Below are positions 5,107 to 28,290 of a stretch of DNA of 64,000 bases, piece after piece. Location of the stretch: NCBI GenBank assembly GCA_047285535.1, contig JBJBDC010000001.1:1312136-1376135 (forward strand), read 5' to 3'. Each line of letters opens with the position of its first letter. The stretch's first letter is position 1. This stretch comes from Synechococcus sp. GTDB taxonomy: Bacteria > Cyanobacteriota > Cyanobacteriia > PCC-6307 > Cyanobiaceae. Under the pieces are notes generated by a model. It did not search any database, was not told where the DNA came from, and saw only the letters and a list, made by a program, of their open reading frames with translations. The position numbers and the translations under genes were made by a program.

Positions 5107-5162
5107 ATTGCCTGCTGAAGAGCAGCAAAGCTGAAACTGCCTTACGTAAACGTGAACGTTTT

Positions 5163-5696: not shown

Positions 5697-5706
5697 TTGA
5701 TGCCAT

Positions 5707-5835: not shown

Positions 5836-5841
5836 TGCAGC

Positions 5842-5880
5842 GGGGAATGCTTTAAGCAGTTACCTCTGATCAATGACCCT
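5842..5880 (+). repeat. 39-bp direct repeat, copy 1
   Basis: GGGGAATGCTTTAAGCAGTTACCTCTGATCAATGACCCT, identical to 14172-14210. Confidence 0.95.
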
Positions 5881-6094: not shown

Positions 6095-6124
6095 GCGGGT
6101 CACCTAACAAGCCGCACAACCATC

Positions 6125-6454
6125 ATGCGTGATCGTTACGCCGTCGAACCTGGCAACGAACTCCAAACCGTCACAGTTGGAGCAACCTACATCGGTGATC
6201 TGACCTGTTCTCACAGTCAGCACAAGTTGATCTGCATCAGGCGCACTGCCAAGAGTGTGTAGATGAGCGTTGTCGATGCGCCCTACATCAACGGCAATGG
6301 ATTAATTCAAAGCGACGAAGCATGGCGCGTTCCTCGTCGCTCAAAGATCAAGTGGTCTGAATACAACGGCAAGCTGCAAGAAAGCACGGTTACTGACGGC
6401 TGAATATTCGATGCAGACGGCATTGATAACAGCAACGAGCCAAAGAGCTATTGA
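6125..6454 (+). pseudogene. Phage-like hypothetical gene with two in-frame stops
   Basis: A 110-codon frame MRDRYAVE...RRTAKSV*MSVV...TDG*IFDAD...Y with TAG at 6260 and TGA at 6401, followed by a hairpin at ~6474-6490. Confidence 0.6.
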
Positions 6455-6499
6455 TCAGCCGATAACCATCACCGCCCCCTTCGCGGGGGCTTAATCACC

Positions 6500-6661
6500 A
6501 TGACTGTTACTTCACCGCGCACAATGAAAATAGATGCTCATCTCTGGGCAGAAGTTAAACGAATCGCTGCATTTGGAGATCGATCATCATCGTATGTCGT
6601 GAATCGAATGATTGAAGCCAGCCTGAGTGATGACGCAGACGAATTAACACCTAAAACCTAA
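6500..6661 (+). CDS. Ribbon-helix-helix (Arc/CopG-like) DNA-binding protein, 53 aa
   Basis: MTVTSPRTMKIDAHLWAEVKRIAAFGDRSSSYVVNRMIEASL...: beta-strand, helix, RS, helix pattern; below the ORF-track cutoff. Confidence 0.6.
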   Translation: MTVTSPRTMKIDAHLWAEVKRIAAFGDRSSSYVVNRMIEASLSDDADELTPKT

Positions 6662-6684
6662 AAACCATTCAAGGAATCAGTATC

Positions 6685-6908
6685 ATGGCACGTAAGAAAA
6701 TATCACCAGAAACACTGCATCAATTCATTAGGAGCACTTAATTCCTGATACTGCTCAGGGTTACGAAACTGTTTGTCAATTCACTGAAGAATATGAATTA
6801 AGTGCAGGCGCAATTTCTAATCTATTAGCAGCAAAGAAACATCTTCAAAACGCAATGGCATACGCCAAAGCTTGTGAAGTCATCGTAGATTATGAGGTAG
6901 AAGACTGA
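6685..6908 (+). pseudogene. Frameshifted small hypothetical gene
   Basis: MARKKISPETLHQFI continues in another frame as EHLIPDTAQGYE...DYEVED*. Confidence 0.45.
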
Positions 6909-7273
6909 TGAATCTACAACGGCATCTGTTCTAGTAGGCATCTGAGGGGTATCCTGATGGGGCCCCTGAAGGAATCAACCGCTATTGATTTTGGCATCAA
7001 GTGATTCAACCGTAATGCCGTTGAATTACGCACATTTCAAACGCATGGCTTGAGCAAGACATTGTTGATGAATCATGCTTTGAACTGGGATTCACTTAGG
7101 AAGGTGTTGTCCTTGTAAGCAGGCATGATTGCTCCACAAGAAAGGCGATGACCTAAAAGGAAATAGCTAGGGATAGGCAAAGCCCAACACAAACATACAA
7201 GATAAACTTTTGTAACAGCTACCTGATGCCCATCAACTTAATGCCAAAAGTATAAGCACTTAAGTTCAACAAC

Positions 7274-13438: not shown

Positions 13439-13912
13439 ATGACCTATTCAATGAAACTGTTCACAGCACTTGCTACAGGTTCAATCTTTATTGCTGCTCT
13501 GCCCGCTTTTGCGGATGATAATTATGGCGGGTTCACTACGCCCTCTAAGAATATTTGGTGTGCTAAAAGGGTTGATCTTCAACCAAGTATTCCCATATCC
13601 GTCGAATGCGATGTTGCCAATCATGCTTGGAAAGAGTGGATTCAAGATGGTGACCTGAATGGTTATCATGGGAATAGATTTATGATCCCAGGCACTGGCC
13701 CTGCAGAAGCAATAGAGAGTTCAGATACAATGGTTGGTAGTGCAGCTCCTGTTTTGCAATATGGACAGAAGGTTACCTTTGGACATCGTCCTGAAGACGG
13801 AACTATTACCTGCATCTCCGAAAAGATCGGGCTTACATGCACTAATAAAAGTGGTGGTTTGATGCATTTAAATCGTGAGTTCTATGTTCTTAACAAGCCA
13901 GTACCTAGGTAA
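13439..13912 (+). CDS. Secreted Cys-containing protein (DUF6636-like)
   Basis: Signal peptide (AFA-D) and motifs FTTPSKNIWC, LQYG and ITCISEKIGLTCTN. Confidence 0.7.
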   Translation: MTYSMKLFTALATGSIFIAALPAFADDNYGGFTTPSKNIWCAKRVDLQPSIPISVECDVANHAWKEWIQDGDLNGYHGNRFMIPGTGPAEAIESSDTMVGSAAPVLQYGQKVTFGHRPEDGTITCISEKIGLTCTNKSGGLMHLNREFYVLNKPVPR

Positions 13913-14210: not shown

Positions 14211-14305
14211 TGATATCCAGATGAGGTTCTGCAGTTTCCTCAAAAAGTGGAATCCGCCTCCATACAGAAAGTACGTAAGGGAGAAGGAGTTGGCAAAGAA
14301 GCACT

Positions 14306-14620
14306 TTATTCCGCTAGACCCTTGAACTCTTCCAAGAGAACTCTGTTGAGTCGGTCATCACATCCAACAACCAGTTGCGGGTAAATCGTTCCTTGCAAAT
14401 AAGGTCGATACGCAGCAGAGCACACCACCATGGTTGCCTCTCTCCATTGCTTCAGGGCCTCTGGTGAGAGTTTCTTTTCAAGTGCTGCTTTGGACTCATC
14501 CAAACTTTTGGAGGCGCACCACCTCATCTCAACGGTGTTGTTCCCCGGGCACTTGACGTCTGGTTGCTCTGCCTTCGCTGGCATCAGCGGCAGCAATATC
14601 AGCAGCAGAAGTGCTCTCAT
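14306..14620 (-). CDS. Secreted LprI/DUF1311-like protein
   Basis: MRALLLLILLPLMPAKA signal peptide and C..NTVEMRWCA, QW......C, C...L pattern. It is in frame with an upstream 59-codon segment (to 14797). Confidence 0.6.
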   Translation of the reverse strand: MRALLLLILLPLMPAKAEQPDVKCPGNNTVEMRWCASKSLDESKAALEKKLSPEALKQWREATMVVCSAAYRPYLQGTIYPQLVVGCDDRLNRVLLEEFKGLAE

Positions 14621-14790
14621 TTTTTCTAGGACTTGCTCAAGCACAGCATCCTGCACTCGGTCTTGGAATGCTTTGGCTTCTTGCTCTGGCGCAAGCGCAT
14701 CAGCAGCGGCACGCAGTGCATCAGCAGTTATCTGACGGGCACCTGGACTGGTGAAGAGCAAATCCCCCAGACCAACGCCAACTAGAACTT

Positions 14791-14968
14791 TCAGCACCGT
14801 GCTGCCTCCTGTTCAGCAATGATTCGTCGAATCGTTGAGAGCGCGAGTCCCGTCTGCTCACGAATGGAGCGATAGGAGCATCCTTCATCCCTAAGGCGAA
14901 GCCCCAAGCGTTCCTTGGCTTCGTTGGTTTTCGGGCGACCGCCCAAGTTCCCGCCTGCTGACCTTCGT
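14791..14968 (-). pseudogene. C-terminal remnant of a small serine recombinase (resolvase HTH)
   Basis: GGNLGGRPK...LRDEGCSYRSIREQTGLALSTIRRII matches the GGRP linker plus HTH of resolvases; the catalytic N-terminal domain is absent. Confidence 0.8.
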
Positions 14969-14972
14969 CCGT

Positions 14973-15013
14973 ATAACCCGAAGGTCGGAAGTTTCAATCT
15001 CCCCCCCCCACCA
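14973..15013 (+). other. Degenerate tRNA-Met-like 3' fragment (probable att relic)
   Basis: ATAACCCGAAGGTCGGAAGTTTCAATCTCCCCCCCCCACCA resembles the anticodon-to-CCA half of an initiator tRNA-Met. Confidence 0.65.
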
Positions 15014-15020
15014 CCAATTG

Positions 15021-15046
15021 CCCCCCCGCCACGGAGGGGGTTTTTT
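15021..15046 (+). terminator. Rho-independent terminator
   Basis: CCCCCCCG-CCA-CGGAGGGGG-TTTTTT. Confidence 0.65.
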
Positions 15047-15079
15047 AATGCCTTACAGGGTTGGTTGGAACCAACGCCC

Positions 15080-15946
15080 CTATATGGCATCAGCCTCAGC
15101 GAGGAAACCATTCACCGCATCGAGATAGGCCTGATGGGCGTCGATGTAGGTCTTGTGGCCAGCATTGGCCAGCACCACCAGAGCAGCATGGGCACCAATG
15201 CATTGCCTGGCCTGATCCAGGGTGTGCGGTGTTGCTGTGTCGTGCTCACCGCAGAGCAGCAGGGTGGAGACCTGGAGCGAAGCGAGCTGGGGGAACAGAT
15301 CCACATCGGCCAACAAACCACTGGCCCTGAATTCAGTCTCCCCCCACATCGTGCGGTAGAGATGGCCATTGCTGCGCTGTCGCTCGCGACGTAACAGCTC
15401 AGGGGGAGTGGGCAGTCGACAGAAATGGTGGCGATCAAACACCGCTTCCACCTCAGCCGGGGGCTGGCCTTCCGTCTTCAGGGCAGCCAGCAGCAGCGTG
15501 GAGTCAGCGAGCCACCGCACTGTGGAGAGCAGTGGCGATGACAACACCAAGCGTGAAACCCGATGGGGATGCTGCAAGGCGAACTGCGCCATCACTGTTC
15601 CGCCCCAGGAATGGCCCAACAGGTGAACCGTGCCCAGCTCCAGCGCATCAAGCAGCCTGAGGGGTTCAACAGCAAAGCGACTGAGCGTCATCTGATCAGC
15701 CGATAGGTCTGCTGGTGAACAACAGGAACCGAGTTGGTCGTAACAAATCAGGGGGCGCTGATCTGCAATGGAATGCAGTGCGTCATAGAGGCCGATGCTG
15801 CTGCCCCCGGGGCCGCCATGGGTGATTAGTAAGGGCGTGCGTGCAGCGGCTTCATCGTTGTGGGGCCGGTAGGAGCGGTACTGGATGTCTCCACCTGGCA
15901 CAGCCACCATCGCGACCGTTTCAAGCGAGTGTTGATGCCATGCCAT
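15080..15946 (-). CDS. Alpha/beta hydrolase, proline iminopeptidase-like
   Basis: Motifs HGGPG, YDQLG, GHSWGG (nucleophile), GEHD and AGH. Confidence 0.88.
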   Translation of the reverse strand: MAWHQHSLETVAMVAVPGGDIQYRSYRPHNDEAAARTPLLITHGGPGGSSIGLYDALHSIADQRPLICYDQLGSCCSPADLSADQMTLSRFAVEPLRLLDALELGTVHLLGHSWGGTVMAQFALQHPHRVSRLVLSSPLLSTVRWLADSTLLLAALKTEGQPPAEVEAVFDRHHFCRLPTPPELLRRERQRSNGHLYRTMWGETEFRASGLLADVDLFPQLASLQVSTLLLCGEHDTATPHTLDQARQCIGAHAALVVLANAGHKTYIDAHQAYLDAVNGFLAEADAI

Positions 15947-16046
15947 GCGGAACGCATCCCGCCACTGGATTCAGCATGGATGATGGCGTGGCCCCCTTGC
16001 GCAGCAGGACGGCTGAACTGCACTCGCGAATCCCGGCATCTGTGCC

Positions 16047-16241
16047 ATGCGGCCGGATTTCTTGGACGTGGTGGCGGTCAAGCCGCCCAGTGAGAAGGCC
16101 TACCTGGCGCAAGTTCTCTTTGTGGAAAGCGGAGCCAGAACCGCTGAACCCAACTTCCTGCAGGTCTGCCGCGAGCCCGACTGCGCGGTGATGAGCATTT
16201 GCCCGAGCCAGATCACCCAACCACTAACGCGCGGTCCCTAG
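16047..16241 (+). CDS. Small DUF3104-like protein
   Basis: AQVLFVESGAR...FLQV resembles the cyanobacterial DUF3104 pattern. Confidence 0.45.
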   Translation: MRPDFLDVVAVKPPSEKAYLAQVLFVESGARTAEPNFLQVCREPDCAVMSICPSQITQPLTRGP

Positions 16242-16299
16242 CCAGAACAGCAAGACCTCAGAAGACATCGCTGGTGACAGCACTAAATATGGTCCACAA

Positions 16300-16740
16300 T
16301 GGCTGCTCCTGGGCCATGGTCTTGCTGCCGATTTCGGTGCCATTGGCCTCGCGGTCCCTGTAGTGGGCCTCGGAAATCGCTTTCCAGTTGATGCCACCGG
16401 TAAGGGTTGGCACGCCTGGGGCTTGTTCGTCTTCGGCTTCCTCGGGGTGAAGCTCGCGCTACGCTTCGCTCGATAATTTGGGCTTATCGCCGCTGGTGGC
16501 CGCGACCAACGCCTTCAGCGTTTTGATCAGTTCACCAATGCAGCCGACCTCCCACTGAATGGGCAGCGTTTTGGTCCATTGGGCCTTTTGGCCATCGGTG
16601 CCAAAGCGAACCCGCAGCTTGACCTTCCCTGTTTGCTCCATCACCGACCACCCGCGTGGGATGCCGGCCTTCTTCATGTCTTCTTTGAGGTGAGGGCGGC
16701 AATCGAGGGCCACCGATGGTTGCTTGCTTTGACCATGCAC
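16300..16740 (-). pseudogene. Truncated tyrosine integrase, paralog of 26742..28007
   Basis: AGIPRGWSV..GKVKLRVR..WTKTLP..WEVGCIG, then TAG where the intact gene has Trp, then GVPTLTGGINWKAI..YRDR..NG..KTMA; the catalytic domain is missing. Confidence 0.92.
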
Positions 16741-16779
16741 CCTTCTGAGCAGGCCTTGATGCCGCGATTCTGCCCGGAA

Positions 16780-16801
16780 AATGGTCTAGCAATGGTCTAA
16801 G
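16780..16801 (+). repeat. Putative arm-type binding sites of the older integrase
   Basis: AATGGTCTAGC AATGGTCTAAG tandem between the int pseudogene and the att core, mirroring 28051-28072. Confidence 0.6.
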
Positions 16802-16860
16802 TGACCAAAACCAGGCTTTGCAGGCTTCCACGGAAACCCCAAAACCCTTCATATAACTAA

Positions 16861-16905
16861 CGCCCCCTGTTGGATTCGAACCAACGACCGGCTGCTTAGA
16901 AGGCA
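16861..16905 (-). repeat. att core: 45-bp duplication of the tRNA-Arg 3' part
   Basis: CGCCCCCTGTTGGATTCGAACCAACGACCGGCTGCTTAGAAGGCA, identical to 28155-28199. Confidence 0.97.
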
Positions 16906-16995
16906 AGAAAATTCACAATTGGAGCCTCGGTTTTTCAAGCTATTACTGGGATCTCTGATTTAGGGGCGCCCTTGGGACCCCTTGAAAATGCCGAT

Positions 16996-17027
16996 AGTGG
17001 TCCCGTTTTCAGGGGGGTGGGACCACT
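16996..17027. repeat. Putative integrase arm-type sites at the distal att end
   Basis: AGTGGTCCCG (16996) and inverted GGGACCACT (17019), the same motif as 28051-28072. Confidence 0.7.
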
Positions 17028-17166
17028 TTTTGGGGCCCGTTTCTGCTCCAAGTCATCTATGTCGAAGGCGGTGCCAGGTTCAGCGGTCCGAACTTTTCAC
17101 GAGTGCATGCCCTACTAAACCGTGACGCTTGCCATAGCTAAGACGTAGTTGTTCGCGCGGGGCACC

Positions 17167-17622
17167 ATGGCTCACGCAAAGCTCACTAATCGGGCTGCTC
17201 GCCTTATCCGTCCTGCAGAGCGCTCTGAGGCTTTGCATTTAGCGGGCGTCGACATCACTCCATTGGTTTCAGCTGACCAATCTGCTGATTACGAGGTCGC
17301 GGTCATCTCTGGTAAGGAGGGGCATGGACCACCACCGCATTCACATCCTTGGGATGAAACCTATTTCGTCTTGCGTGGTGAAGTCGTTTTTGGAGTTGGT
17401 CGGGATGAGCAGGCCTTTGCTCCTGGAGCCTTAGTTCACGTACCAGCTGGAGAACGTCACTGGTTCCGATTTGACCAGCCTGGCGAAACAGTCGTTGTAA
17501 CAGGCGGCCATAGCGCTTTTGCCATGTTCAAAGGGCTTGCTGATGTCCCCGATGGTTCCCCTGCTGAGGACTACCTGGCAGTAGCCCTGCGCTATGGAGA
17601 AGAGGATCGGCGCGACGGGTGA
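17167..17622 (+). CDS. Cupin domain protein
   Basis: Motifs PPPHSHPWDETYFVLRGE and VPAGERHWF; followed by a terminator. Confidence 0.88.
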   Translation: MAHAKLTNRAARLIRPAERSEALHLAGVDITPLVSADQSADYEVAVISGKEGHGPPPHSHPWDETYFVLRGEVVFGVGRDEQAFAPGALVHVPAGERHWFRFDQPGETVVVTGGHSAFAMFKGLADVPDGSPAEDYLAVALRYGEEDRRDG

Positions 17623-17638
17623 AATTGCTGGTTGCTTG

Positions 17639-17664
17639 GCCCCTGCTTCGGCGGGGGCTTTTTG
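17639..17664 (+). terminator. Rho-independent terminator
   Basis: GCCCCTGC-TTCG-GCGGGGGC-TTTTT. Confidence 0.75.
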
Positions 17665-17796
17665 ATGCTCAAAACCCAGTGCTGATGTGCTCACCCGCTT
17701 TTCACCAGAACTGTTCTGGCTTCTGACCAGAGGATGACCAGAGCCTCAAAAAGTCAGCGGACATTGTGCAAGAAATCTCACACCCGACCCCAGACA

Positions 17797-17934
17797 ATGA
17801 ACCGCTACCAAAAGACTCTTGCTGCCACCTTTGCTTTTGTGGGGGCCCTTTTTTATGTGGCTGCCATGCCCCCTGCCACCTCTGAACCTTCTCCTGTAGG
17901 CCCTAGTTACTTTCACGGTTATCGAGTGGGCTAG
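17797..17934 (+). CDS. Small hydrophobic or exported peptide, 45 aa
   Basis: MNRYQKTLAATFAFVGALFYVAAMP... Confidence 0.4.
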   Translation: MNRYQKTLAATFAFVGALFYVAAMPPATSEPSPVGPSYFHGYRVG

Positions 17935-17937
17935 TTC

Positions 17938-18174
17938 TCAAACGCTGAACTTCCACTTGGCGTCTGCAGGAATGGCAGGGCCTTTCTTCAGGTCGGCCGG
18001 GTCCTTGTCGCTGATGCGCCTGGTCGGAACCACGCAGTCTTTGAAGTCACCGTGCTGCAGCGTCACTGCTTCCGCGTGCTCAGCGTTGTCGGTTGCGTAG
18101 AAGCCGCCGCGCCATTCACCACCGTCTAGGCCCCCTTTGAACCAGACCCAAACCTTTGTGCGGGCGTAGCTCAT
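17938..18174 (-). CDS. Small hypothetical protein, 78 aa
   Basis: Intact Trp/Gly-rich ORF; a decayed second copy at 3231-3359 supports it being a real gene. Confidence 0.7.
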   Translation of the reverse strand: MSYARTKVWVWFKGGLDGGEWRGGFYATDNAEHAEAVTLQHGDFKDCVVPTRRISDKDPADLKKGPAIPADAKWKFSV

Positions 18175-18177
18175 AGA

Positions 18178-21100
18178 TCAGAACAAAAACCTCAATCCCC
18201 CTGAATACCCGAATTGTGATCCTGCACTCTCAACCTCGTAGTTAGCTGTCGCGTAGAGAGAAGCGTTCTGAAAAATCTGCAGATCGCCTCCAGCAGCAAT
18301 AGTCAATGAATTTGCGCCGCCATTTTGCCCCTGGGATGTGATTTCACCTGTTCCTGGAGCATCAACAAAGCTAGCTGTCAGCTCTTTGGTCTGCCTGGAA
18401 TTTGCCAGTGCATCAACTTGATATATAAGGGCAAATTTTGGAGAAAAGCTTTGATTGCCACTCTTGGTAAATTTGATCGGAGTTGTAGCAACCTCGAGCC
18501 CAATAGTTCCGATAAGGCTGTTGGCATTATGGCTATTGATTTGTAAGTCAGTGGCGTTACCGCCTGACTCTTCAAATCCTTTCTGTTGATAGCTACTCAA
18601 TGCAACCCCGACCATTGGAGAGATGATAAGCCAATCATTTTTGGATTTAGTGTTGATGGGAAGGTCGTATTTGGCGTCAATACTTGTCGTATAGCCTCGA
18701 GCCGAAGTATTACCATCAATTGGTTGTTGATTGCCAATGAATCGAACCCTCCTCGTGCCCTCTACATCAAATTGCGTATACCCAATGGATGCTTGAATTT
18801 TAAGTCGATCAATGGGTTTGAAAGTCCCATAAATTGCAGCACTATTATTTGTAGAGCTAACCTCTGCAGAAGTTAGGCTCATCCCATAGAGATTTGAATT
18901 GCCATAGCCATAAGCTGCTCCAATACTCCATTGGCTTGTGGGGAAGTATTCAACACCCCAGAGTGCAATATCTGAATTGGAGAGATAAGAGGAAAGACCT
19001 TCTGTTCCATTGATGTCTGAATTCAACCTTGCTGCATCGGCAAAAATACATAAGGGAAGTTTCCGGTTTCTGTTCTCAGCTAGTGAGGAATCATCACTGG
19101 GTAATGAAACAACCCAACCCGTTTTTTTGCAGTTGCCTGCATGAGTGGCAAGCAACTCTCGTTGTTGCTTAAGTGAGTTCAAGCCTACCGCTTGAAATGC
19201 CGCATATGGCTCAGGTGATAGAGAGTTAATCGCAGCAGAAAGTTGATTGGCTGAGGTCAGTTGAACCAAATCATCCAGCAAACTGATGTATTCACTTGAA
19301 TAACCAGCTGCTTCTGCCTGCCCAGTCGTGAAGCCAGTATCTCCAATTGCATGGCCGGTTGCGTTGCTTCCTAACGTCCCTGTGTTGTTGCCAGCGATCA
19401 CAGCAAGATTTTGATATGAGGTGTCGAGCACATGTGCCGTTGACTTCTGGTTAAAGCCGGCATTTTTTTGAAAAATCAAGGCTGACCCAACAACACCAAC
19501 ACCATTTCTGGGCTTCCAAGCAATGTCCAATGTAGTTCCATCGCCATCACTGCCAACGACTAAATTTGCTCCACTTGAAAGAAGAATACTTTTGACTGCA
19601 TCTTGGTTCAGGCTTCCACTGTATGCAATGTTAGAGCTTGAGCTAATTAGTTGGTAATTAAAGAATGGGAATGGAGAACCTTGGTCATACGGAAGAATCA
19701 TTATTTCTCCATTAACAATGGCATCCCCATTGATAGAGATCTTGTCATTTTGAGGACCCTTGATTTCGATTTGAAGTTTGGCACCAGGCTTCTGATTGAA
19801 CTCACCAGAGACTGTCAGCGCACCAATCGAGCTTCCTGGAGTCATGAGTGCTCCAGATCTAAGCGTTGTTGGCCCAAGCTCTCCACTTCCGCCAACGGCA
19901 CCACCAGAGTTCACGGTCAAGTTTGAACTGGCAATCGAACCATCGACTTGCAGCAGCCCACCTAAGATTGTAGTTTCACCCGTATAAGTGTTTTGGCCAG
20001 TAAGTCTTAGAATTCCGTTGCCAGCTTTACTAAAACCACCAGTGCCAGAAATATCATTACTCCAAACTGAATTAAAGCCCTTGGTGTTGATTGCAAATAT
20101 AGGTGCAAAAATTGATTCGTTGCCTGGGATTAATGATGGATGGCCAAATTGAATTGGTCCTCTGACAGCACGCCCAGCATTGACTAATCCATGCCCAGCA
20201 TCTATCGCGGATAAGTTTGGTATTTCAGTTGCAGTTGTCAAAATAACTTCTATGACTTGGCGAGCTGTCATGTAGGGGAATGCCTGACGCACTAATGCGG
20301 CAACCCCAGCAACCAAAGGTGCTGCTTGAGATGTACCGCTTGAGTTCTCATAGTTGTTGATAGGTACTGTGGAATATATGTCCAATCCTGGCGCCCCAAT
20401 ACACCAATCAGCAGCAAGGCCGCAACGGTTAGTGAATTCGGTTAAAGCCCAGTCTTCACCATCTCGTTGGAGAGCTGTTACTCCTATGAGTGTGCCTGCT
20501 AGGTCAGAAAAGTCATACAGTTCTGCGGTCGACTTAGGAAGTTGGTTCCCTAGCCAGGTATTCACATCTTGGCTGTCAGCCAAATCGTTGAAAATTCGAT
20601 ACAAGGCATTAGTTGGTGCCGTTGGATCTGTAAATGGATAGCCTTCCTTTGTTTTTTTGGGTGTAATAAGAGGCAATGTTGGCATTCCATAGGGCTCTTT
20701 AGAAGCATTGGGTTGAAAATCATATCCATTGCCATTTGCTACAATTAATACAACATCTGCTTCTGCAAGTTTTCTCACGTCCTGCTCGTCGCGCAATAGC
20801 ATTCCTTCGGTAAAAAATTGGAAATATACCTGTGGCGCGCCCGGATTATCAAAGGGATCAGGTGCAAGTTGTGGCCCAAAGCTCGCATTCACAACTGAAG
20901 CACCGGAGTTGATAACTGCTTGAGCCCAATCTGGATCTAATGGCGGGTAAGCATTGTTTGGCTCGTTTCCCTTAATGGCTGCAATGGCTGCAATCGATGC
21001 GTCAAATGCAACGCCCATCATCTCAATCCCGTCCCGTTCAGCAGCTGCAATTCCTGCTACGTGAGTTCCATGGTCAGGAAATTGCCCTTCCTTTGAAAAG

Positions 21101-21402
21101 CCTGGTACTGGGAATTGGTAGCGTGGATGAGGCCAATAGATTCGTTGCTTTAACTGAGGGTGCGACCATTGAAGCTGTGTATCAGCGATTGCAATTTTAA
21201 TCCCCTTGCCTGTGAACCCAAGCGCGTACGCTTCCGCTGCATTTGTATATTGCAGGCCCCAGTTCTTGTAATATTCAGGCGTCTTAAAGCTAGATGTATT
21301 GGGTTGTGCATTTCCTACAGAACCTAGTGTGAATAATGTAAGTAGGCATGCGCCCGCACAAGCCTGCTGCAGTAATCCACTAGTGGCTTCATTCCATTTC
21401 AT
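18178..21402 (-). CDS. Subtilisin-like (S8) serine protease autotransporter
   Basis: Catalytic motifs IAIADT, HGTHVAGI and SGTSQAAPLVAG; linker WSNDISG.GG..KAG.G.L.LTG.NTYTG.T; barrel ending FLF. Confidence 0.93.
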   Translation of the reverse strand: MKWNEATSGLLQQACAGACLLTLFTLGSVGNAQPNTSSFKTPEYYKNWGLQYTNAAEAYALGFTGKGIKIAIADTQLQWSHPQLKQRIYWPHPRYQFPVPGFSKEGQFPDHGTHVAGIAAAERDGIEMMGVAFDASIAAIAAIKGNEPNNAYPPLDPDWAQAVINSGASVVNASFGPQLAPDPFDNPGAPQVYFQFFTEGMLLRDEQDVRKLAEADVVLIVANGNGYDFQPNASKEPYGMPTLPLITPKKTKEGYPFTDPTAPTNALYRIFNDLADSQDVNTWLGNQLPKSTAELYDFSDLAGTLIGVTALQRDGEDWALTEFTNRCGLAADWCIGAPGLDIYSTVPINNYENSSGTSQAAPLVAGVAALVRQAFPYMTARQVIEVILTTATEIPNLSAIDAGHGLVNAGRAVRGPIQFGHPSLIPGNESIFAPIFAINTKGFNSVWSNDISGTGGFSKAGNGILRLTGQNTYTGETTILGGLLQVDGSIASSNLTVNSGGAVGGSGELGPTTLRSGALMTPGSSIGALTVSGEFNQKPGAKLQIEIKGPQNDKISINGDAIVNGEIMILPYDQGSPFPFFNYQLISSSSNIAYSGSLNQDAVKSILLSSGANLVVGSDGDGTTLDIAWKPRNGVGVVGSALIFQKNAGFNQKSTAHVLDTSYQNLAVIAGNNTGTLGSNATGHAIGDTGFTTGQAEAAGYSSEYISLLDDLVQLTSANQLSAAINSLSPEPYAAFQAVGLNSLKQQRELLATHAGNCKKTGWVVSLPSDDSSLAENRNRKLPLCIFADAARLNSDINGTEGLSSYLSNSDIALWGVEYFPTSQWSIGAAYGYGNSNLYGMSLTSAEVSSTNNSAAIYGTFKPIDRLKIQASIGYTQFDVEGTRRVRFIGNQQPIDGNTSARGYTTSIDAKYDLPINTKSKNDWLIISPMVGVALSSYQQKGFEESGGNATDLQINSHNANSLIGTIGLEVATTPIKFTKSGNQSFSPKFALIYQVDALANSRQTKELTASFVDAPGTGEITSQGQNGGANSLTIAAGGDLQIFQNASLYATANYEVESAGSQFGYSGGLRFLF

Positions 21403-21685
21403 CCTTTGGGCGGATTCATTTTCGCAGATTAGGCACTACTTCCCATTTTTCAACTAATTTTTTCAGAAGATCCCATTTGGGTTCGCCGTCTCAGGGCAAT
21501 TGCCTTGCTTTTCTTGTTCTGTATTTTCATGCGCTTGCCTGTATCTGATGGCTGACTAGTAATAGTCTTGTTTCTGTTTTTGATGAATCAATTCTTGGGT
21601 AGCAAGCTCCTGGCCTGAGAAACTGTCCACAATCCATAGACGCTCAGTAAAGGGCAGTCAAACTACGTAATATCTATGAAAAATA

Positions 21686-23245
21686 ATGACGTCAGATTCG
21701 CCTGGATACTTCTTCGATGAAACAAGCTGGAGAAATAATCCACAGTTTAAGAAAGATATCGCCTTGATGGCAACGTTGGACCCCAAAGCTAGGGCAAATC
21801 TGACATCAAGCCCTGAAAATTATGTCGTTGGAATGACATCTGAAATAGCCAATACACCAGGCGACCAGGGAGATACAAAGGCCTACCAATACTAGGACAA
21901 GGGCTGGAAACTAAGCAAGGCACTGATTCAGAGCTGGGATCCCCAAACTAAATCCGCGAAGAGTCTCGCCAACGAAATACTAAGCAATTTATACCTTTAT
22001 CCTGCCAATCAAATCCAGCCAAGTGAGGGGCAATCATCCAAGAAAAAGGGATTTGCTTTCTGGTGCCAAGACCTAGAAGTTAATGCTGAATTACCTGCTA
22101 ATGGACCTGATATACAAGCGCAATTTGCTGGGATTCTTGCGGCCATGTGGGCGGGGCACCAAGTTTTAAAAGGGTCGAACGTTAAAAAAATACCCATAGT
22201 GTCTAGAAGTATCATGACTAATCTACATGTTGACCCGGCAACACAGCAGTTTGATCAAACAGAATTGGTTGATTTGACTGATGTAATCCCAATGCTTAAG
22301 AAGCTAGGAATAAGCAATATTCAAGGGACCCCGCCACCTGACTATTCGCGAGTCAAGCAAGGCAGAAAATCATGGAACTTGATGTCCGTCCTTAAGCAAA
22401 ACGGTTTGATTGATGGATTTATCTATGAAGAGTATTCGCAAGTGGATGCCAGCTCAAAGACCCCTCTCCGCATAACAAGCTTTCACGCTCCATTCGATGT
22501 AAAGCAAGATCTTCCATATGCGCTCATGGGCCACTATTACGGGAAAGGTAGCAACCTCCCAACGGCTAGCAGTTCCAAAGGGGTGGCTTTTGATTTTTAT
22601 GATAAGAACGGTGTTATGCCAATCAATGCTGCTGCCTATTTCGCGGCTGGATCAAAAGACATTTCGGAAGCGCTAGCGATTGACCCTGCGACCTATTTTT
22701 TGCCAACACCATCACCACTTGCAAATTCAACAGCAAGCAATCTTCAGTATTCAGAATCTGGCGGTAAAAGAATCATTGACCTGTCGATGCTTTCTTCTGG
22801 CTATCAAGCAATTATTAACATTGATGTAAGCCGAGAGGCTGACTATTCATCATTTTCTGGTTTCTATCGACTCGCCGATTCCGATGGGTCAGTCAGGGAT
22901 CCAATCAGTGGTCAACTCATTGCACCAGGTCAGTTTGGCTACAAAGAGGCAGCTCTTTCGGCGTCTAATCGAATCTCTAGTATCGATAATCTCTACCTTT
23001 CGTCTGACGGATCAGGTAGCTTTTCTGCATCTTTACATGGAGGAATGATGTTTGCTCCATTCACAGAGGTCACTGAGCCTGGCCATGAAAATACTTTTTT
23101 CAGTTTTGCCGCCGCGAATTCGGATGGATTTCAACACTTTAAACAAATAGCACCTAATTCTTTCGGTATGGAAGACATGCACAATGGAGGGGACAAAGAT
23201 TTTAATGACTTAGTTATTGATTTGAGCATCACGGAAATAATATAA
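21686..23245 (+). pseudogene. DUF4114-domain protein interrupted by one in-frame TAG (21893-21895)
   Basis: ORFs 21686..21895 and 22145..23245 share a frame with no other stop between them. The C-terminus has VSREADY..GFY, AANSDG..H and FGMED..GGDKDFNDL. Confidence 0.8.
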
Positions 23246-23481
23246 GTTCGCTTCGTCTCTGGAGTGGTGTCGAGTAGATATCGCTTAAATTTCTCTTTTA
23301 TCATGTCTGTTTTCACCAAGAGTGCCGTTTTCTTCGTTGCTTTAAGTTCAGATTTGATAGGTCTGATTTTTAGCGGCCTCTTCCATCTCCATAGCACGAC
23401 TAACGGACTCCTCCGTTCAAGCTGCCTCCTGCACTGGCGAGTCTCTCCTGAGGTCCACTCCGGAGAGCTTTTGTGGGGTTG

Positions 23482-23900
23482 CTATTTCCCGGTAAGCCCA
23501 GTGATCTTCATCAGTTGCACTGCAGCGCCCACTGCTGCGCCGTATTGCCGATCATTCATGGACTGCTCAACAACGGTCTCCATCTGCGAAATCAACTGCA
23601 CGGCATAGTCCTTCCGGTCGAGTTCGTACTGCTGCTTCAGCTGTTCATTTCATAGGCCCTGGCTCGCAACGTCTCGATCTGACGGTGGGTCAGCCCCCAT
23701 TGAGCTGAAGCGTGCTGCAGAACTGAGAGGCGTCCATGACCATCGGCTACCCACAGGCAGATTTGATTGATTCGCTGATCAGTGACTTCTTTTGAGGCTT
23801 TACCGGCCACTGCACGATGGAGTGGATGATCTAATGCCCATTGTTCCCAAGCCGGTGAATCTTTGGGCGGTGGCTTGATTGATTCAATTCTTGGTTTCAT
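23482..23900 (-). pseudogene. Terminase small subunit-like gene frameshifted by a 5-bp duplication
   Basis: HTH-like ...GHGRLSVLQHASAQWGLTHRQIE... Removing one TTCAT (23644-23653) gives a 137-aa ORF ending ...YELDRKDY...YGAAVGAAVQLMKITGLTGK. Confidence 0.7.
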
Positions 23901-23962
23901 TTGCTATCCCAGCAACGGCTCGTGTTAGTCGCTAACTGTGGTTTGATCGCTTTCCATCGTGT

Positions 23963-23985
23963 GCGGGACCACTAGCGGGACCACT
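23963..23985 (-). repeat. Internal pair of arm-type motifs, inverted relative to 28051-28072
   Basis: GCGGGACCACT A GCGGGACCACT is the reverse complement of AGTGGTCCCGC twice. Confidence 0.85.
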
Positions 23986-24053
23986 TCAGTCCTGTTGATA
24001 ATCTAGCGACGACTTGATGCCCTCTTCATCGAAAAAGAGAGTAACAAGATGAG

Positions 24054-24190
24054 CTTGGGAAGCTTGGAAGCTTGTTATACCAATTGATTTCAGTCTTGTT
24101 GTCACTACTTGGCAAGCCTTGGCAAGTCTTGGAAAGAATGACTCCCAAGTGTCTAATCCATTGCGGTGGAAGGGGGTCAAGTCTCCCAAG
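24054..24190. other. Putative replication origin with iterons
   Basis: Five CTTGG(N)AAG copies and two inverted CTCCCAAG copies around an AT-richer spacer, directly downstream of the helicase gene. Confidence 0.6.
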
Positions 24191-24198
24191 ATGGTTGG

Positions 24199-25890
24199 TT
24201 AGTCACTCCTGATTTGGAACCGCTCAGATCGCCCATCTTTTGAGCTTCGCAGGATGTCTTTGCGGACCAATGACTTCAGCCGCTGACGCATCGACTCAAT
24301 GGCTGAGTTGTCAGGCTGGCTTTTGTCGCCGCACTCCAGTGATGCAACCTCGATGGCAGTAGCACCTTTGGGGCTCTTCCCCATGCTGCAAGCAGCACTA
24401 ACCAGCTCAATCGCCTTGCGTTGTTGCTCCGTCAGTCCATCGATCACAGCAGCCTTCCGGTCGTCAGCGGTTAGTGATGCCAGCTCCTTTTGGAACTCGC
24501 CCAGCACCTTGAAAGTGCCTTGGGGCCAATCACCACGGATCAGCAGGTCTTGGTAGGGACCTCGGCCTTCCACAACCATCCGGCGATGAGGGTTGTCTTT
24601 ATCGGCGATCCTCTTGCCGGTCTGAGGGTCTTTTGTCTGGAGGAAGTGCAGAGAGATGCCTGCTGATGGGACACCCTTGGCAGAGCCATGCCCGCGAATG
24701 GCAGCAATGCCAACCTGCGATGTGTCAGCTGAACTATGGAAAGCGCAGATATGGGCTTTCAGCGCAGCTCCAATCGTGCTCTGCAACTCAATCAGCGCAC
24801 CCCCTGCGCCAGGGTCCTGGTCATCGCCATAGATCGGCTGGATGTTCCGGAAAAAGCTGTCTGAGAGCAGAACCGCTCCAGGGTGCTGAGTGGTGAGCTT
24901 GATCAGTTCGTCGTGGCCTTCCTCATCCCAGCAAAGGCCGTCTTCCTCGGTGAAGACTTTGACGATCGCGTGGTGGTATTTGCCCTCTGCATCAATCAGA
25001 CCAACAGCGCGTAGATAGGCGTTGGTGTCGACTGCAGGCTGGTCAGTCCACCAAAGGATCAACTTGTGGGGACCGGGAGCTGGCTGCCATGCCGGGTTGC
25101 CCATGAATGGGCGTTGAAAGACCAGCGAGGCCGCGAGGTCGCAAAGCAGCTTGGTTTTGCCGACCTTGGCAAAGGCAGCGACTGCAGTCAGGCAGTTTTG
25201 AGCGATGAGGTCGTTGATTAGCCATTGCTTTTGCAAATTCCGGACCTGGCACCCACCCGAAACGCCACGCTCGGCAGTGCCGCGAATGCGATGACGCTGC
25301 AGCTCTCGAATCCTTTTGGTGACCTGATCTGGAGTGACTCTGATCCTGAGCTTGTTGGCAGCTGTGGCAGCTCTGATGTGCCGCCGTACGGGATTGCGCT
25401 CAAAAGCTAGGTGCTCTGGATCAACCAGCTGCTGCAATAGCTGCTCCCACTGATCAAGCGGCGCTAGCTGCTCTTGAGCCTTGGCATCAGTCGCGAACTG
25501 CGGAGCTTGCGCTTGAACGCCCGCAAGAATCGTCCCAAGGTTGACTCCTTTGGTTGCAATCCAATCGGCAATGTCTCTGCCACCGTCGGCTGGACAACTC
25601 GGATCGTCAGGGAAAGGGATGAACCATCGGCAACCGGGATGGGCTTGGGCGACGTTTCTGGCGTAAGCAAGACCTGGTTGGTCCCTGTCTGGGGAGACCA
25701 CGAGCCGCTCAGCAGGTATGTGGTCACCATCGCGCTCCGGTCGGAACCCCTTAGAACCGCCAAGGCTGGTGACGGCAGGGATGCCCACGGACCAGCACGC
25801 GTCGAAGGTCATCAGCAGACCTCCAGCAAGCGGATATGGAAATCGTTCAGGCTCATTCGACGAGCCTCCGCTTGGCGGCGATGGCCTCAT
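24199..25890 (-). CDS. TOPRIM primase fused to an AAA (RepA/AAA_25-like) helicase; 5' end uncertain
   Basis: Motifs GIPAVT..GG, VVSPDRDQPG and GRDIADWI; Walker A AFAKVGKT; IRGHGS; C-terminal wHTH-like end. Confidence 0.8.
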   Translation of the reverse strand: MRPSPPSGGSSNEPERFPYPLAGGLLMTFDACWSVGIPAVTSLGGSKGFRPERDGDHIPAERLVVSPDRDQPGLAYARNVAQAHPGCRWFIPFPDDPSCPADGGRDIADWIATKGVNLGTILAGVQAQAPQFATDAKAQEQLAPLDQWEQLLQQLVDPEHLAFERNPVRRHIRAATAANKLRIRVTPDQVTKRIRELQRHRIRGTAERGVSGGCQVRNLQKQWLINDLIAQNCLTAVAAFAKVGKTKLLCDLAASLVFQRPFMGNPAWQPAPGPHKLILWWTDQPAVDTNAYLRAVGLIDAEGKYHHAIVKVFTEEDGLCWDEEGHDELIKLTTQHPGAVLLSDSFFRNIQPIYGDDQDPGAGGALIELQSTIGAALKAHICAFHSSADTSQVGIAAIRGHGSAKGVPSAGISLHFLQTKDPQTGKRIADKDNPHRRMVVEGRGPYQDLLIRGDWPQGTFKVLGEFQKELASLTADDRKAAVIDGLTEQQRKAIELVSAACSMGKSPKGATAIEVASLECGDKSQPDNSAIESMRQRLKSLVRKDILRSSKDGRSERFQIRSD

Positions 25891-26095
25891 CCCATGCGCG
25901 CAGGGTGGCCTCTAGATCCCAGACGATCTGGCAGCAGTTGGGTGATTTACGGCGGTAGTGAATGCCGTGTTTGAGGAACTGATCGCAGGGGCGAACGTCT
26001 TTGTCTTGGTAGTCCTCGCGGCGGCGATGAAGGGTCTTGGGATCACTGAAGCCAAGCTCCCCGATCACCTGCCGCGTTGTTGCGTTGAAAGTCAC
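25853..26095 (-). CDS. Excisionase-like small DNA-binding protein
   Basis: 80 aa, ELG.S..TL.RRR...LK.G.HYRR...WD winged-helix-like pattern, located between int and rep. Confidence 0.6.
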   Translation of the reverse strand: MTFNATTRQVIGELGFSDPKTLHRRREDYQDKDVRPCDQFLKHGIHYRRKSPNCCQIVWDLEATLRAWDEAIAAKRRLVE

Positions 26096-26102
26096 GTGCT
26101 GG

Positions 26103-26543
26103 TCACATCAGATGGATGTGGCCGACCAAACGCTTAGCTCTGTGTTGGATCCTCTTTGACGAACACCACTCCCCCTTGCAGTAAGGCAATGGTGTGTTCC
26201 ACCGTGTCGCGCTCAACGATCCGCATGGGCGGGAGGTTGATTGCATTCGGGTGAGCTTGTCGGCCTGCTGGTAAGCACGCATCACTGCTGGAGGCATAGA
26301 AACCTCAAGAAATGAGGGCAAGCCAGAAATCGAGTGCGGCGGGGGCACCGGAAGGTCAAACCCAATGGCAGCATCAGCCTCAATCATCTTTTTGACGAGG
26401 GAAGCTGAGTACGGCGCGCCTTTCGGCAGCAGCATTTTTTGGGAACGACGACGTGACAAGGCTGTCTCAATGAACAGAGAAAGCGGCTGGTCACAGTTCC
26501 GATTGCCCGCTGGAAGCCATCCCAGGGGTTCAGGCGAGATCAA
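26103..26543 (-). CDS. Hypothetical protein
   Basis: Co-oriented ORF between int and the xis-like gene; no recognised motif. Confidence 0.35.
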   Translation of the reverse strand: MISPEPLGWLPAGNRNCDQPLSLFIETALSRRRSQKMLLPKGAPYSASLVKKMIEADAAIGFDLPVPPPHSISGLPSFLEVSMPPAVMRAYQQADKLTRMQSTSRPCGSLSATRWNTPLPYCKGEWCSSKRIQHRAKRLVGHIHLM

Positions 26544-26741
26544 GGAGACCCTCGAAAGGATGGCCTTGATAACTGATGCCTACATTTTAGTCAGGGTTGG
26601 TGGCCCTTCTCCGCCCTCGGTGCACCTAACGGCTCAAATAATCAGGAAGTCTTTCTCGAAGATGTCGATGCTCAGAAGTAATACCGCGACGTCAGCCTGT
26701 TTAGTGATGAATGCATGCCAGTGTGCATTCCCTCGGGCTAG

Positions 26742-28007
26742 TTATTTCACTTCTGTCGTTTGGGAATTAAGGATCCGCTCAAACACTTCTGCGGTTGTTT
26801 CCTCGGTCGCTGTGACGTAGTTCTCGCTGTGGGTTTTTTCGCTGTGGCCCATGGCCATCGCCACGCTGGCTCCAGTTAGTCCGCGTAGGTGGGCGCGCAC
26901 GCTGTAGGCGTTCCTAAAGCTGTAAGGACGCAACCATTGCCCTTGCGCCTCGTAGTGCTCAGACCATTGCTTCCATAGCGGCAGCCTGCGCAGGTACTGG
27001 GAGACGGCTTCTCCCCTGGTGTTCAAAGGTGGGAATGGCAGTAACCCTGCTTTCAGTTCACCGGCGAGGTCGTTGGCTGGAACGACGCCATCAGGGCCTT
27101 GCAACGGCACGGCCTGTAGCCAGCGGGGTTTGGTGGCCGTCTTCGTCGTACGACCACCGGCGGCTTTGCGGTAACTGCACCAGATCTGCAGCTTCCCTGT
27201 TGTTGGGTTGGTCTTTGCCGTTAGGTGCAGCAACTCCTCTGGCCTCAAGCCAAAAACCGCCATCACGAACAGCACGTTCTGCCACTCCTGGCTGGGGCAG
27301 CTGTTGATCAGTTCAAGGATTTGAGCGTCACGGAGGATTGCCGTTTCCCTGGGTTCAGCGGGCTTCCCGTTCCCGGCAAGGCTGAGCTTGTGATGTTGGG
27401 GAAGAATCCATTCCGGGCTTAAGCCTTCATGGGCCACGGCGAAGGTGAGCATCCGCGTGATTGCTCCAACGCACTGCTGGCGTGACCGTGGTTTGTTGCT
27501 CCAGCCGCCACTGCTGATGGCCGCATCAATCAGCTTGTAAGGAGAGCTGGGTGGCTTCGCGGAGGTCAGAAGTGCAATGGCTTGGTCGCAGTAGCTGCGT
27601 TCCAGGGCCATCGTTTTATCGCTGATGCGTTTCCCGTTCTCCTGCCGGTCTCTGTAGAAGGCTTTGGCGATTGCTCTCCATTTGATTCCGCCAGTGAGGG
27701 TTGGCACGCCGAGTGCTGGTTCTTCGGTGGTGTCTTCGGGGTGACGCTCAAGCCAGGCTTCGCTCAGCGACTTGGGTGGGTTGCCTGCTGTCGCTTTGTG
27801 CAGGGCTTTCAGTTCATTGGTGACTGGCCCGATGCAGCCGATTTCCCAGGCATAGGGAAGTGTCTTGCTCCATTGACCTGCAGCGCCACCTGCTCCCTGC
27901 CTGACGCGCAATTTGACCCGACCACGGTGTTCGCTCACCGACCAGCCACGTGGGATGCCGGCTTCCTTGATTGATTCCTTCAGCGCAGGGCGGAAATCGA
28001 AGCCCAT
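26742..28007 (-). CDS. int: Tyrosine recombinase/integrase
   Basis: Catalytic motifs FGLRPEE, RPYSFRNAY, AMGHS..H...Y; adjacent to the tRNA att site. Confidence 0.93.
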   Translation of the reverse strand: MGFDFRPALKESIKEAGIPRGWSVSEHRGRVKLRVRQGAGGAAGQWSKTLPYAWEIGCIGPVTNELKALHKATAGNPPKSLSEAWLERHPEDTTEEPALGVPTLTGGIKWRAIAKAFYRDRQENGKRISDKTMALERSYCDQAIALLTSAKPPSSPYKLIDAAISSGGWSNKPRSRQQCVGAITRMLTFAVAHEGLSPEWILPQHHKLSLAGNGKPAEPRETAILRDAQILELINSCPSQEWQNVLFVMAVFGLRPEELLHLTAKTNPTTGKLQIWCSYRKAAGGRTTKTATKPRWLQAVPLQGPDGVVPANDLAGELKAGLLPFPPLNTRGEAVSQYLRRLPLWKQWSEHYEAQGQWLRPYSFRNAYSVRAHLRGLTGASVAMAMGHSEKTHSENYVTATEETTAEVFERILNSQTTEVK

Positions 28008-28050
28008 GGGCTCTATTCGGCCAGTTCAGCTGGGTTCAGTTTGAGGTGAA

Positions 28051-28072
28051 AGTGGTCCCGCAGTGGTCCCGC
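28051..28072 (+). repeat. Putative integrase arm-type sites at the tRNA-proximal end
   Basis: AGTGGTCCCGC repeated perfectly in tandem between int and the att core. Confidence 0.75.
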
Positions 28073-28154
28073 TAGCTCAAAAGCAGGCTTATTAGGCTTT
28101 TCCGGGTTCCAGGGTGATTCCCTAGATCCATTGCCCTGTCTTGTTTTTTAGAGA

Positions 28155-28228
28155 CGCCCCCTGTTGGATTCGAACCAACGACCGGCTGCTTAGAAGGCAG
28201 CTGCTCTATCCAGCTGAGCTAAGGGAGC
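28155..28228 (-). tRNA. tRNA-Arg(UCU)
   Basis: Reverse complement GCTCCCTTAGCTCAGCTGGATAGAGCAGCTGCCTTCTAAGCAGCCGGTCGTTGGTTCGAATCCAACAGGGGGCG folds as a cloverleaf with anticodon TCT. Confidence 0.97.
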
Positions 28229-28290
28229 ATCTCTGCATTTTGTCAGTTCATGGACAGCACCCTCTTAAACTTGAAAACTGTGTGGTGATA

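Follow-up and report, generated by a model that had tools for sequence, protein, structure and literature searches.

A probable tycheposon-type element with surface-protein cargo and a recently broken terS-like gene at tRNA-Arg(TCT) of a Synechococcus genome

Structure of the element

The DNA analysed here, referred to as the window, is a stretch of 64,000 nucleotides (nt) from Synechococcus sp. (GCA_047285535.1, contig JBJBDC010000001.1, positions 1,312,136 to 1,376,135), whose genome has a size of 3.03 Mb and a GC content of 50.6%. The window contains one tRNA gene, tRNA-Arg(TCT), at 28153-28229 on the minus strand (ARAGORN; Rfam tRNA, 66.7 bits). The 3' part of this gene (28154-28199) is one copy of a perfect direct repeat of 46 nt, the other copy of which is found at 16860-16905 (46/46 identical); the length between the two repeats is 11.3 kb. 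The window contains exactly two copies of a 31-nt portion of the repeat, whereas 0 were expected from 100 shuffles. The segment 16860-28199 is with good confidence a single integrated element of the tycheposon type, i.e., a site-specific integrative island of picocyanobacteria which resembles the phage-inducible chromosomal islands (PICIs). Beginning at the tRNA, the following features were annotated (lengths of proteins in amino acids, aa; ORF, open reading frame; att, attachment site):

28153-28229, minus strand: tRNA-Arg(TCT), intact integration target (ARAGORN; Rfam)
28154-28199, no strand: proximal att core, 46-nt perfect repeat equal to the 3' part of the tRNA (repeat search, 100%)
28051-28072, plus strand: putative P-arm, two direct exact copies of AGTGGTCCCGC between the integrase start and the tRNA (motif search; layout also found in loci L033 and L035)
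26742-28007, minus strand: tyrosine recombinase (integrase), 421 aa, open (phrog_1; conserved R..YxxR..H..H..Y)
26103-26543, minus strand: ORF of 146 aa without recognisable family, possibly a regulator or a spurious ORF (library scans)
25853-26095, minus strand: xis-like winged-helix protein, 80 aa (integrase neighbourhood; AlphaFold 2 model)
24199-25890, minus strand: replication helicase (AAA_25, RepA/DnaB-like), 563 aa (Pfam AAA_25, 8.5e-08; phrog_30286)
23963-24136, no strand: ori-like region of three short tandem repeats, including an internal AGTGGTCCCGC pair (Tandem Repeats Finder, TRF; putative origin by position)
23637-23900, minus strand: 5' part of the terS-like gene, 87 codons and then a premature TGA (99% identical to the intact 137-aa protein P0001)
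23644-23653, minus strand: tandem duplication of 5 nt, two ATGAA copies, which shifts the frame (comparison with P0001; contig of run X6)
23482-23649, minus strand: 3' part of the terS-like gene in the shifted frame, 55 codons plus stop (aligns with P0001 residues 84-137, 2 substitutions)
22145-23245, plus strand: cargo, DUF4114-domain protein, 366 aa (Pfam DUF4114, 1.9e-10)
18178-21402, minus strand: cargo, subtilase (S8) autotransporter, 1074 aa, open (Peptidase_S8, 1.7e-38; Autotransporter, 2.1e-33; PATR)
17938-18174, minus strand: small ORF, 78 aa, recurring in other tycheposon-like regions (tblastn matches in L051 and L086)
17149-17622, plus strand: cupin-domain protein, 157 aa, with backbone-like GC content (Cupin_2, 2.1e-12)
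16996-17027, no strand: putative P'-arm, inverted AGTGGTCCCGC pair, 91-122 nt inside the distal att (motif search; same arrangement in L035)
16860-16905, no strand: distal att core, partial copy of the tRNA (repeat search)

A full tRNA-Arg(TCT) thus delimits the element on one side and a partial copy on the other, and tRNA-Arg-tct is among the seven island tRNAs of tycheposons named in section 3 of preprint 10.1101/2020.12.28.424599. The AAA_25 helicase gives the element a replication module of its own. No capsid, tail or conjugation genes were found among its 13 ORFs in a scan with Pfam and PHROGs, as is the case for tycheposons.

Integrase, xis-like and helicase genes

The integrase matches the integrase family phrog_1 with an E-value of 1.6e-11. 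In an alignment of 30 members of its family, R255, Y362-x-x-R365, H393 and Y397 are invariant and H388 is present in 29; all catalytic residues of the family are present in the protein of the window. The family was detected in 179 of the 401 genomes of the host family. In relatives it was found beside tRNA-Pro(TGG), tRNA-Val, tRNA-Thr and the transfer-messenger RNA (tmRNA), and it adjoins tRNA-Pro(TGG) in 2/7 loci from small-genome relatives. Scans of the genome contig collection gave no relatives of the integrase or the helicase, and neither protein has a sequence match among solved structures. For the 146-aa ORF next to the integrase gene, no match was obtained in Pfam, PHROG or NCBIfam.

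A small winged-helix, MerR-like protein beside the integrase is typical for an excisionase (recombination directionality factor), and the xis-like gene encodes such a protein. Its family is located at most 1.5 kb from the integrase in 18 of 29 related loci, and its AlphaFold 2 model is a winged helix with a mean predicted local distance difference test (pLDDT) score of 91.1. The Pfam, PHROG and NCBIfam scans gave no match for it. The fold neighbours, which are statistically weak (E 0.4-3.2), are the putative excisionase 2kvv, Pukovnik Xis and Tn916 Xis; a profile search gave 2kvv at E 0.024, also a weak match, and the ESM Atlas provided an excisionase lead. Weak matches of both kinds, fold and profile, also include DNA-binding domains of terS proteins.

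Proteins from four other genomes have 50-53% identity to residues 136-562 of the helicase. Its N-terminal 135 aa are a separate, swappable domain, of which residues 29-134 match other proteins. Homologues of the helicase are present in 73/401 genomes of the host family. Comparison with the DUF3854 plus AAA_25 protein of L119 revealed only the Walker region in common and thus provided no Toprim or primase domain for this protein. The three tandem repeats at 23963-24136, downstream of the helicase gene, have 1.9-2.9 copies each according to TRF; PICIs have their origin at this position.

An earlier note on this DNA, which was written from the sequence alone, had named an intact tyrosine integrase and a xis-like gene, and both annotations were upheld by the open reading frame with its catalytic residues and by the model and neighbourhood of the 80-aa protein. 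Three other statements were upheld in part. The repeats were correctly described as perfect and derived from the tRNA, but their length is 46 bp instead of 45 bp. From the proposed primase-helicase, the AAA_25 helicase domain remains. The iterons exist as the three tandem repeats just described, with modest copy numbers.

The terS-like gene

The two parts of the terS-like gene are collinear with P0001, a protein of 137 aa from a metagenome, and differ from it in 3/137 residues. A second intact metagenome protein, P0003, is 79% identical, and one contig of the marine metagenome run X6 lacks the 5 nt at 23644. The break of the gene is real and, since the intact allele differs by only three residues, recent. 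The claim that this gene exists and is dead, while the integrase gene and both att sites are intact, was therefore confirmed; the cause is the 5-nt duplication, which leads to a frameshift and the premature TGA.

PHROG 34910 (phrog_34910, ‘unknown function’) matches 56 of 60 members of the terS-like family. The only phage homologues are found in the Prochlorococcus siphoviruses P-HS2, MED4-184 and MED4-117 and have 28% identity. In P-HS2, a terL homologue (phrog_2, 1.2e-39) begins within the homologous gene and precedes the portal gene. A terL homologue is also located directly downstream in 80/80 IMG/VR contigs carrying a relative of the P-HS2 gene (53-99% identity), all of which belong to one phage lineage and are not independent cases. 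Hence, the phage genes occupy the position directly upstream of terL, which is that of terS in phages. The AlphaFold 2 model of the terS-like protein is all-helical (pLDDT 94.9), with an N-terminal helical part resembling DNA-binding domains and long helices thereafter. With Foldseek, no entry of PDB or BFVD reached E ≤ 0.001; P74-26 and G20c terS were weak matches at E about 3 and template modelling (TM) scores of 0.35-0.38. A wide VIA-align search with the model gave generic helical hairpins with Z ≤ 7.2. No relatives of P0001 were found in scans of the viral contig and metagenome contig collections. In the host family, the terS-like family was detected in 186/401 genomes, mostly near island tRNAs. 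Judged from its position, the gene is probably terS-like, and another role has a small but appreciable chance.

Several integrase-less occurrences of the family were observed. In three species of the genus (L114, L115, L116), a terS-like gene is situated about 200 nt from tRNA-Ala(GGC), and no integrase is encoded at a distance of up to 10 kb; the gene may have become fixed there as a remnant or may have its own role. In L124 (G236:C1:2055100-2075099), a segment of 9.1 kb at 2507-11642 is bounded by a perfect att repeat of 41 nt at tRNA-Arg(TCT) of a congener and contains a 2134-aa S8 subtilase with RTX repeats, a terS-like gene and a DDE transposase, and no integrase.

Cargo genes and base composition

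All three cargo proteins listed in the earlier note (protease autotransporter, DUF4114 protein, cupin) were confirmed by Pfam domains. The S8 autotransporter also matches the EprS-like family of NCBIfam with 7.9e-73, which is below the family cut-off. It is rare in the genus, with matches in 4/41 genomes. No family was found for the 78-aa ORF in the Pfam scans. The cupin gene is followed by a hairpin and then a T-run.

The core module has a GC content of 54-59% per kb, and the block at about 18.2-23.4 kb 38-53% per 200 nt. In the stretch comprising the cupin gene, orf66 and orf78, the GC content is back at 55-58% per 200 nt. The S8 autotransporter and DUF4114 genes lie immediately 3' of the terS-like gene, which is the usual slot for cargo. 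In the pair L119 and L121, the cores are 88-91% identical, and the cargo, which differs between them, starts where the terS-like gene ends, as in the window. In run X6, the summed contig depth over 17368-18301 (3' end of the cupin gene, orf66, orf78) is 400-825 compared to 3-27 over the rest of the element (4-27 in the cargo block), from which it follows that close relatives of these small genes are abundant there, independent of the element.

Arm-type sites

The 11-nt word AGTGGTCCCGC has exactly 4 copies in the 3.03-Mb genome, all within the element, whereas 1.5 would be expected. With at most one mismatch, 6 matches were found in the window versus 0.93 expected. Pairs of this word at both ends of an element are the pattern expected of arm-type sites, which we take them to be provisionally, as candidate binding sites of the integrase. 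These pairs connect the end next to the cargo with this integrase and thereby place the cargo within the mobile unit. The sites had been overlooked in the earlier note.

Related elements have similar layouts. The G358 element (L033; integrase 72% identical; tRNA-Arg) has a direct AGTGGTCCCGC pair beside its integrase gene. The G248 element (L035; integrase 53% identical; tRNA-Val, Val-tac) has two direct copies plus an inverted group; the latter is found at 9874-9920 beside its distal att, about 100 nt inside the repeat. In a more distant relative, G268 (integrase 49%), a different repeated word is present at the same place beside the integrase gene.

A further direct AGTGGTCCCGC pair is situated inside the element of the window at 23963-23985 (minus strand), downstream of the helicase gene. 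It was considered as an old att junction and rejected, since no tRNA-like fragment lies beside the pair in the window. The G358 element has an internal motif triple (L033, 9497-9531) downstream of its replication genes, at the border between the core and the downstream genes, as is the case for 23963-23985 of the window; its distal 47-nt att is located 13.4 kb beyond this triple and has no motif beside it. It is conceivable, though unlikely, that the internal sites couple binding of integrase or Xis to the control of the terS-like gene, or are a secondary recombination site at which cargo modules are swapped.

Related elements with a terS-like gene and cargo

Among 43 fetched loci, which had been picked for hit proximity or high score and are not a random sample, eight are bounded by att sites and have a full integrase and a terS-like gene (L053, L086, L087, L090, L092, L097, L119 and L121). 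Six of them were annotated (all except L053 and L092). In all six, the terS-like gene is unbroken and is accompanied by other genes amounting to at least 3 kb. In four, these include non-mobility genes recognisable by Pfam, namely transporters, ferritin, a 735-aa DUF4114 protein (L086), a sulfotransferase and a hydrolase; in the remaining two, there are only unknown ORFs or an ORF with a DnaJ domain. Because 6/6 annotated relatives have both, the presence of a terS-like gene together with cargo is the local norm.

The order integrase, xis-like gene, helicase, ori-like repeats and terS-like gene, stated earlier to be that of PICIs and tycheposons, was found to be correct for the element, and so was the combination of a terS-like gene with cargo, as the cargo is inside the att sites. 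The further proposal of a satellite which turned into a cargo carrier found no support, given the unbroken genes of the six annotated relatives with their additional genes and the very recent break in the window. The element is probably an ordinary, typical member of the tycheposon family with a recently broken terS-like gene, and not a new kind of element. What it adds to existing knowledge is small, namely the arm-site motif and a cargo slot that is fixed in position, 3' of the terS-like gene.

Two other relatives have unusual contents. In L121 (G135:C1:993300-1013299, 2654-9528), a tRNA-Pro element has as its cargo a tandem array of five genes for paralogues of about 366-429 aa which match no Pfam family and have many internal repeated 10-mers. 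In L034 (G230:C1:28500-48499), a 15.7-kb att-bounded element at tRNA-Val with an integrase of 67% identity carries a terminase large-subunit-like gene (14251-15678; Terminase_3, phrog_2) beside a D5_N primase and a superfamily 1 (SF1) helicase.

Genomic island

Beyond the distal repeat, a remnant of another integrase was found:

16291-16740, minus strand, outside the element: N-terminal stump of an older related integrase (58% identity to integrase residues 3-141, one TAG)

The stump, also overlooked before, has its own variant direct repeat pair, AATGGTCTA twice at about 16770-16795, at the place of AGTGGTCCCGC in the live element. The stump remained from an element that had integrated earlier at this tRNA, and it shows that integration here was serial. 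The older part of the island includes a block of 39% GC at 7-14 kb. The left flank is mosaic when compared to 41 congeners; beyond the stump, there are unrelated genes with scattered pieces. With the stump, the low-GC block and the mosaic flank, the element is part of a larger island, as tycheposons are. In the published model, new elements push older ones into the island (preprint 10.1101/2020.12.28.424599, section 3), and the stump and the scattered flank pieces agree with this additive-island model. The element is probably the youngest arrival at the tRNA-Arg(TCT) end of such an additive genomic island.

In the older part of the island, a second autotransporter of 1727 aa is encoded at 7274-12457 (plus strand), which the earlier note had not mentioned either. 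Over its C-terminal 619 residues, this protein has 42% identity with the S8 autotransporter; the passenger domains of the two differ. DUF6636 proteins are encoded in the older island (13439-13912) and in the cargo of the tmRNA element of a congener (L090, 6584-7054) and are recurrent island passengers.

Mobility data

The runs X1, X2, X4 and X6 were searched as Logan contigs with k=31. These contigs stop 30 nt into the 46-nt repeat, so attB and attP are indistinguishable from attL and attR. A joint 16859>28154 in run X4 (side 22, both 46) was discarded as a junction, since it is the repeat itself. In run X6, joints 17661/17668>23458 and 23506>28153 have sides of 21-28 nt and a depth of 2-2.8 and are weak hints only. 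An empty tRNA-Arg site was sought with the left flank (14300-16859) in 41 congeners, a collection of one genome per species without conspecifics. Fragments of the flank were found in 39/41 (best, 88% identity over 642 nt), and in none of the 41 is the whole flank located beside tRNA-Arg. As the integrase, xis-like and helicase genes and the att sites are intact, we infer that this copy could probably still excise and replicate.

Comparison with known elements

The element was compared to the tycheposons of Prochlorococcus as described in preprint 10.1101/2020.12.28.424599. In the sections of the preprint used here, tycheposons share with it the integration at tRNA-Arg-tct, a partial-tRNA repeat of about 40 nt, a tRNA-side tyrosine recombinase, an excisionase, a helicase-type replication module, a tRNA-proximal location in an additive island with older integrase fragments and a cargo of up to 10 kb. 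Mitomycin C induces tycheposon genes (section 5). The host differs, as its genome is not a streamlined Prochlorococcus genome. A second difference, provided that the phrog_34910 family corresponds to the ‘terS’ profile of the preprint, is the combination of a terS-like gene with cargo, which was never observed according to section 4 of the preprint.

With PICIs, including the Staphylococcus aureus pathogenicity islands (SaPIs), the element shares the size (11.3 kb; about 10-15 kb in PICIs), the order int, xis, replication gene, ori repeats and terS, and the accessory genes after the packaging module (in part from section 4 of the same preprint). In contrast to PICIs and SaPIs, it has no identifiable master repressor, capsid-remodelling or interference genes, its packaging-like gene is broken and no helper phage is known for it. 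Pfam, PHROG and NCBIfam scans recognised no repressor gene in the element. Pfam and PHROG scans revealed no sequence relation between its core genes and PICI families, and no gene for packaging or capsid hijacking other than the split terS-like gene.

Insertions at tRNA-Phe(GAA) of marine Synechococcus, in the portion of Grebert et al. 2022 (PMC8995045) considered here, are likewise anchored in a tRNA, have tyrosine recombinases and partial tRNA remnants and are found at the head of an adaptive island in Synechococcus/Cyanobium. They differ in the tRNA, and the recombinase is reported as distal there, whereas it abuts the tRNA here; a terS-like gene is not mentioned for them in that portion. 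The cyanosiphoviruses P-HS2, MED4-184 and MED4-117 (MT490303; PMC7852597) share the phrog_34910 protein, which in the phage records is encoded directly upstream of terL and portal. They are, in contrast to the element, complete lytic phages of Prochlorococcus MED4. Phages resembling P-HS2 may be regarded as candidate helper types.

Alternative explanations

A number of results speak against a mobile, satellite-like tycheposon. No primase domain was demonstrated in the 563-aa helicase by PHROG, NCBIfam or structure-sequence searches or by the comparison with L119. The integrase matches Pfam Phage_integrase only at E 0.059, below threshold, as do its relatives, and its place in the monophyletic integrase clade of tycheposons is presumed. 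Both far-side AGTGGTCCCGC copies have one mismatch, and a simple arm-site model does not account for the internal pair at 23963-23985. The terS-like family has no match in Pfam or NCBIfam, the PHROG named terminase small subunit (phrog_24579) is matched by only 1/60 of its members, and the label terS relies on 28% identity to the gene of one phage lineage, which is itself annotated as hypothetical. In the source-strain runs, the depth of the element equals that of the flanks (199.9 versus 182.2 and 204.1 in the flanks, and 390.6 versus 352.8 and 386.4).

Three other explanations draw on these and further results. The terS-like protein could be a helix-turn-helix (HTH) regulator or another DNA-binding factor, so that the element would be a plain cargo tycheposon without satellite lifestyle and the frameshift would be silent on packaging. 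The missing family assignment and the ‘unknown function’ of phrog_34910 are in favour of this, as are the wide distribution of the family (nearly half of the host-family genomes) and its frequent occurrence beside a tRNA without nearby integrase (L114-L116) or in att-bounded segments without integrase (L117, L124). However, the P-HS2-like homologue overlaps the start of terL, the canonical position of terS, which was consistently found in the viral contigs; the architecture of the high-confidence model would be compatible with small terminases; and the gene follows the replication module in the elements, like terS in PICIs. A regulator is thus considered unlikely. If the element were instead an immobile relic and the broken terS-like gene a first step of decay, the segment would now be a plain part of the island. 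The terS-like gene, a hallmark gene, is now a pseudogene; of the older element next to it, an integrase stump is left; the source runs show no excess depth; and degenerated fragments are common in islands, as reported in the sections of the preprint used here. A relic is nevertheless quite unlikely: the att repeats are identical at all 46 positions, no reading frame of the integrase, xis-like or helicase gene is interrupted, both ends have conserved motif pairs, and the break, with 3 substitutions compared to the intact allele, is very young.

Finally, a cargo-less PICI-like satellite (int-xis-helicase-terS-cupin) may have gained the low-GC block of 5.2 kb later, the loss of terS marking a shift from phage parasite to cargo shuttle. 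The different GC contents of cargo block and core would fit, and two low-depth X6 contigs join 17661/17668 to 23458, i.e., the cupin terminator to the 3' flank of terS, skipping the cargo. Moreover, elements with terS or major capsid protein (MCP) genes and cargo were never seen in Prochlorococcus according to the preprint, as far as its cited sections go. Yet the X6 joints are unreliable (sides 22-28 nt, depth 2-2.8), the six relatives with an unbroken terS-like gene and extra genes show that cargo needs no loss of terS, and the break is too recent to mark a change in lifestyle. Little credence is given to this explanation. A typical tycheposon with its cargo between its att sites is preferred.

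Proposed mechanism and implications

For the preferred tycheposon, anatomy, homologies, the break and the conserved layout of the sites are seen in the sequence data; integrase and Xis binding, excision, replication and packaging are inferred to proceed as follows. The tyrosine recombinase would recombine the 46-bp core common to the element and the 3' end of the tRNA, positioned by the AGTGGTCCCGC arm sites, of which two direct copies are on the integrase side and an inverted pair is on the far side. The winged-helix 80-aa protein beside the integrase would act as excisionase. The excised circle would be copied from the repeat region downstream of the AAA_25 helicase gene, and the terS-like protein would normally direct it into the capsids of a helper. 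In the present copy, in which the recent 5-nt duplication broke the terS-like gene, spread would depend on vesicles or mispackaging.

A bolder extension, which we regard as very unlikely in its full form, is that the satellite and cargo-shuttle forms of tycheposons are one and the same in picocyanobacteria of the Synechococcus type, with the cargo slot 3' of a terS-like gene derived from cyanosiphoviruses, and that the AGTGGTCCCGC sites have functions beyond the positioning of the integrase.

Elements of this genus hold a terS-like gene and cargo between one pair of att sites, a combination which the Prochlorococcus survey never saw in the section cited. AGTGGTCCCGC is a concrete candidate arm-site motif for a subfamily of tycheposon integrases, common to different tRNA targets, and can be used for binding assays and for delimiting elements. 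The broken and intact terS-like alleles are a natural pair for testing packaging into cyanosiphovirus capsids. The S8 autotransporter cargo is an example of the transfer of cell-surface proteins through these islands, and if satellite and cargo shuttle were indeed the same, capsid hijacking would be a regular export route for niche genes.

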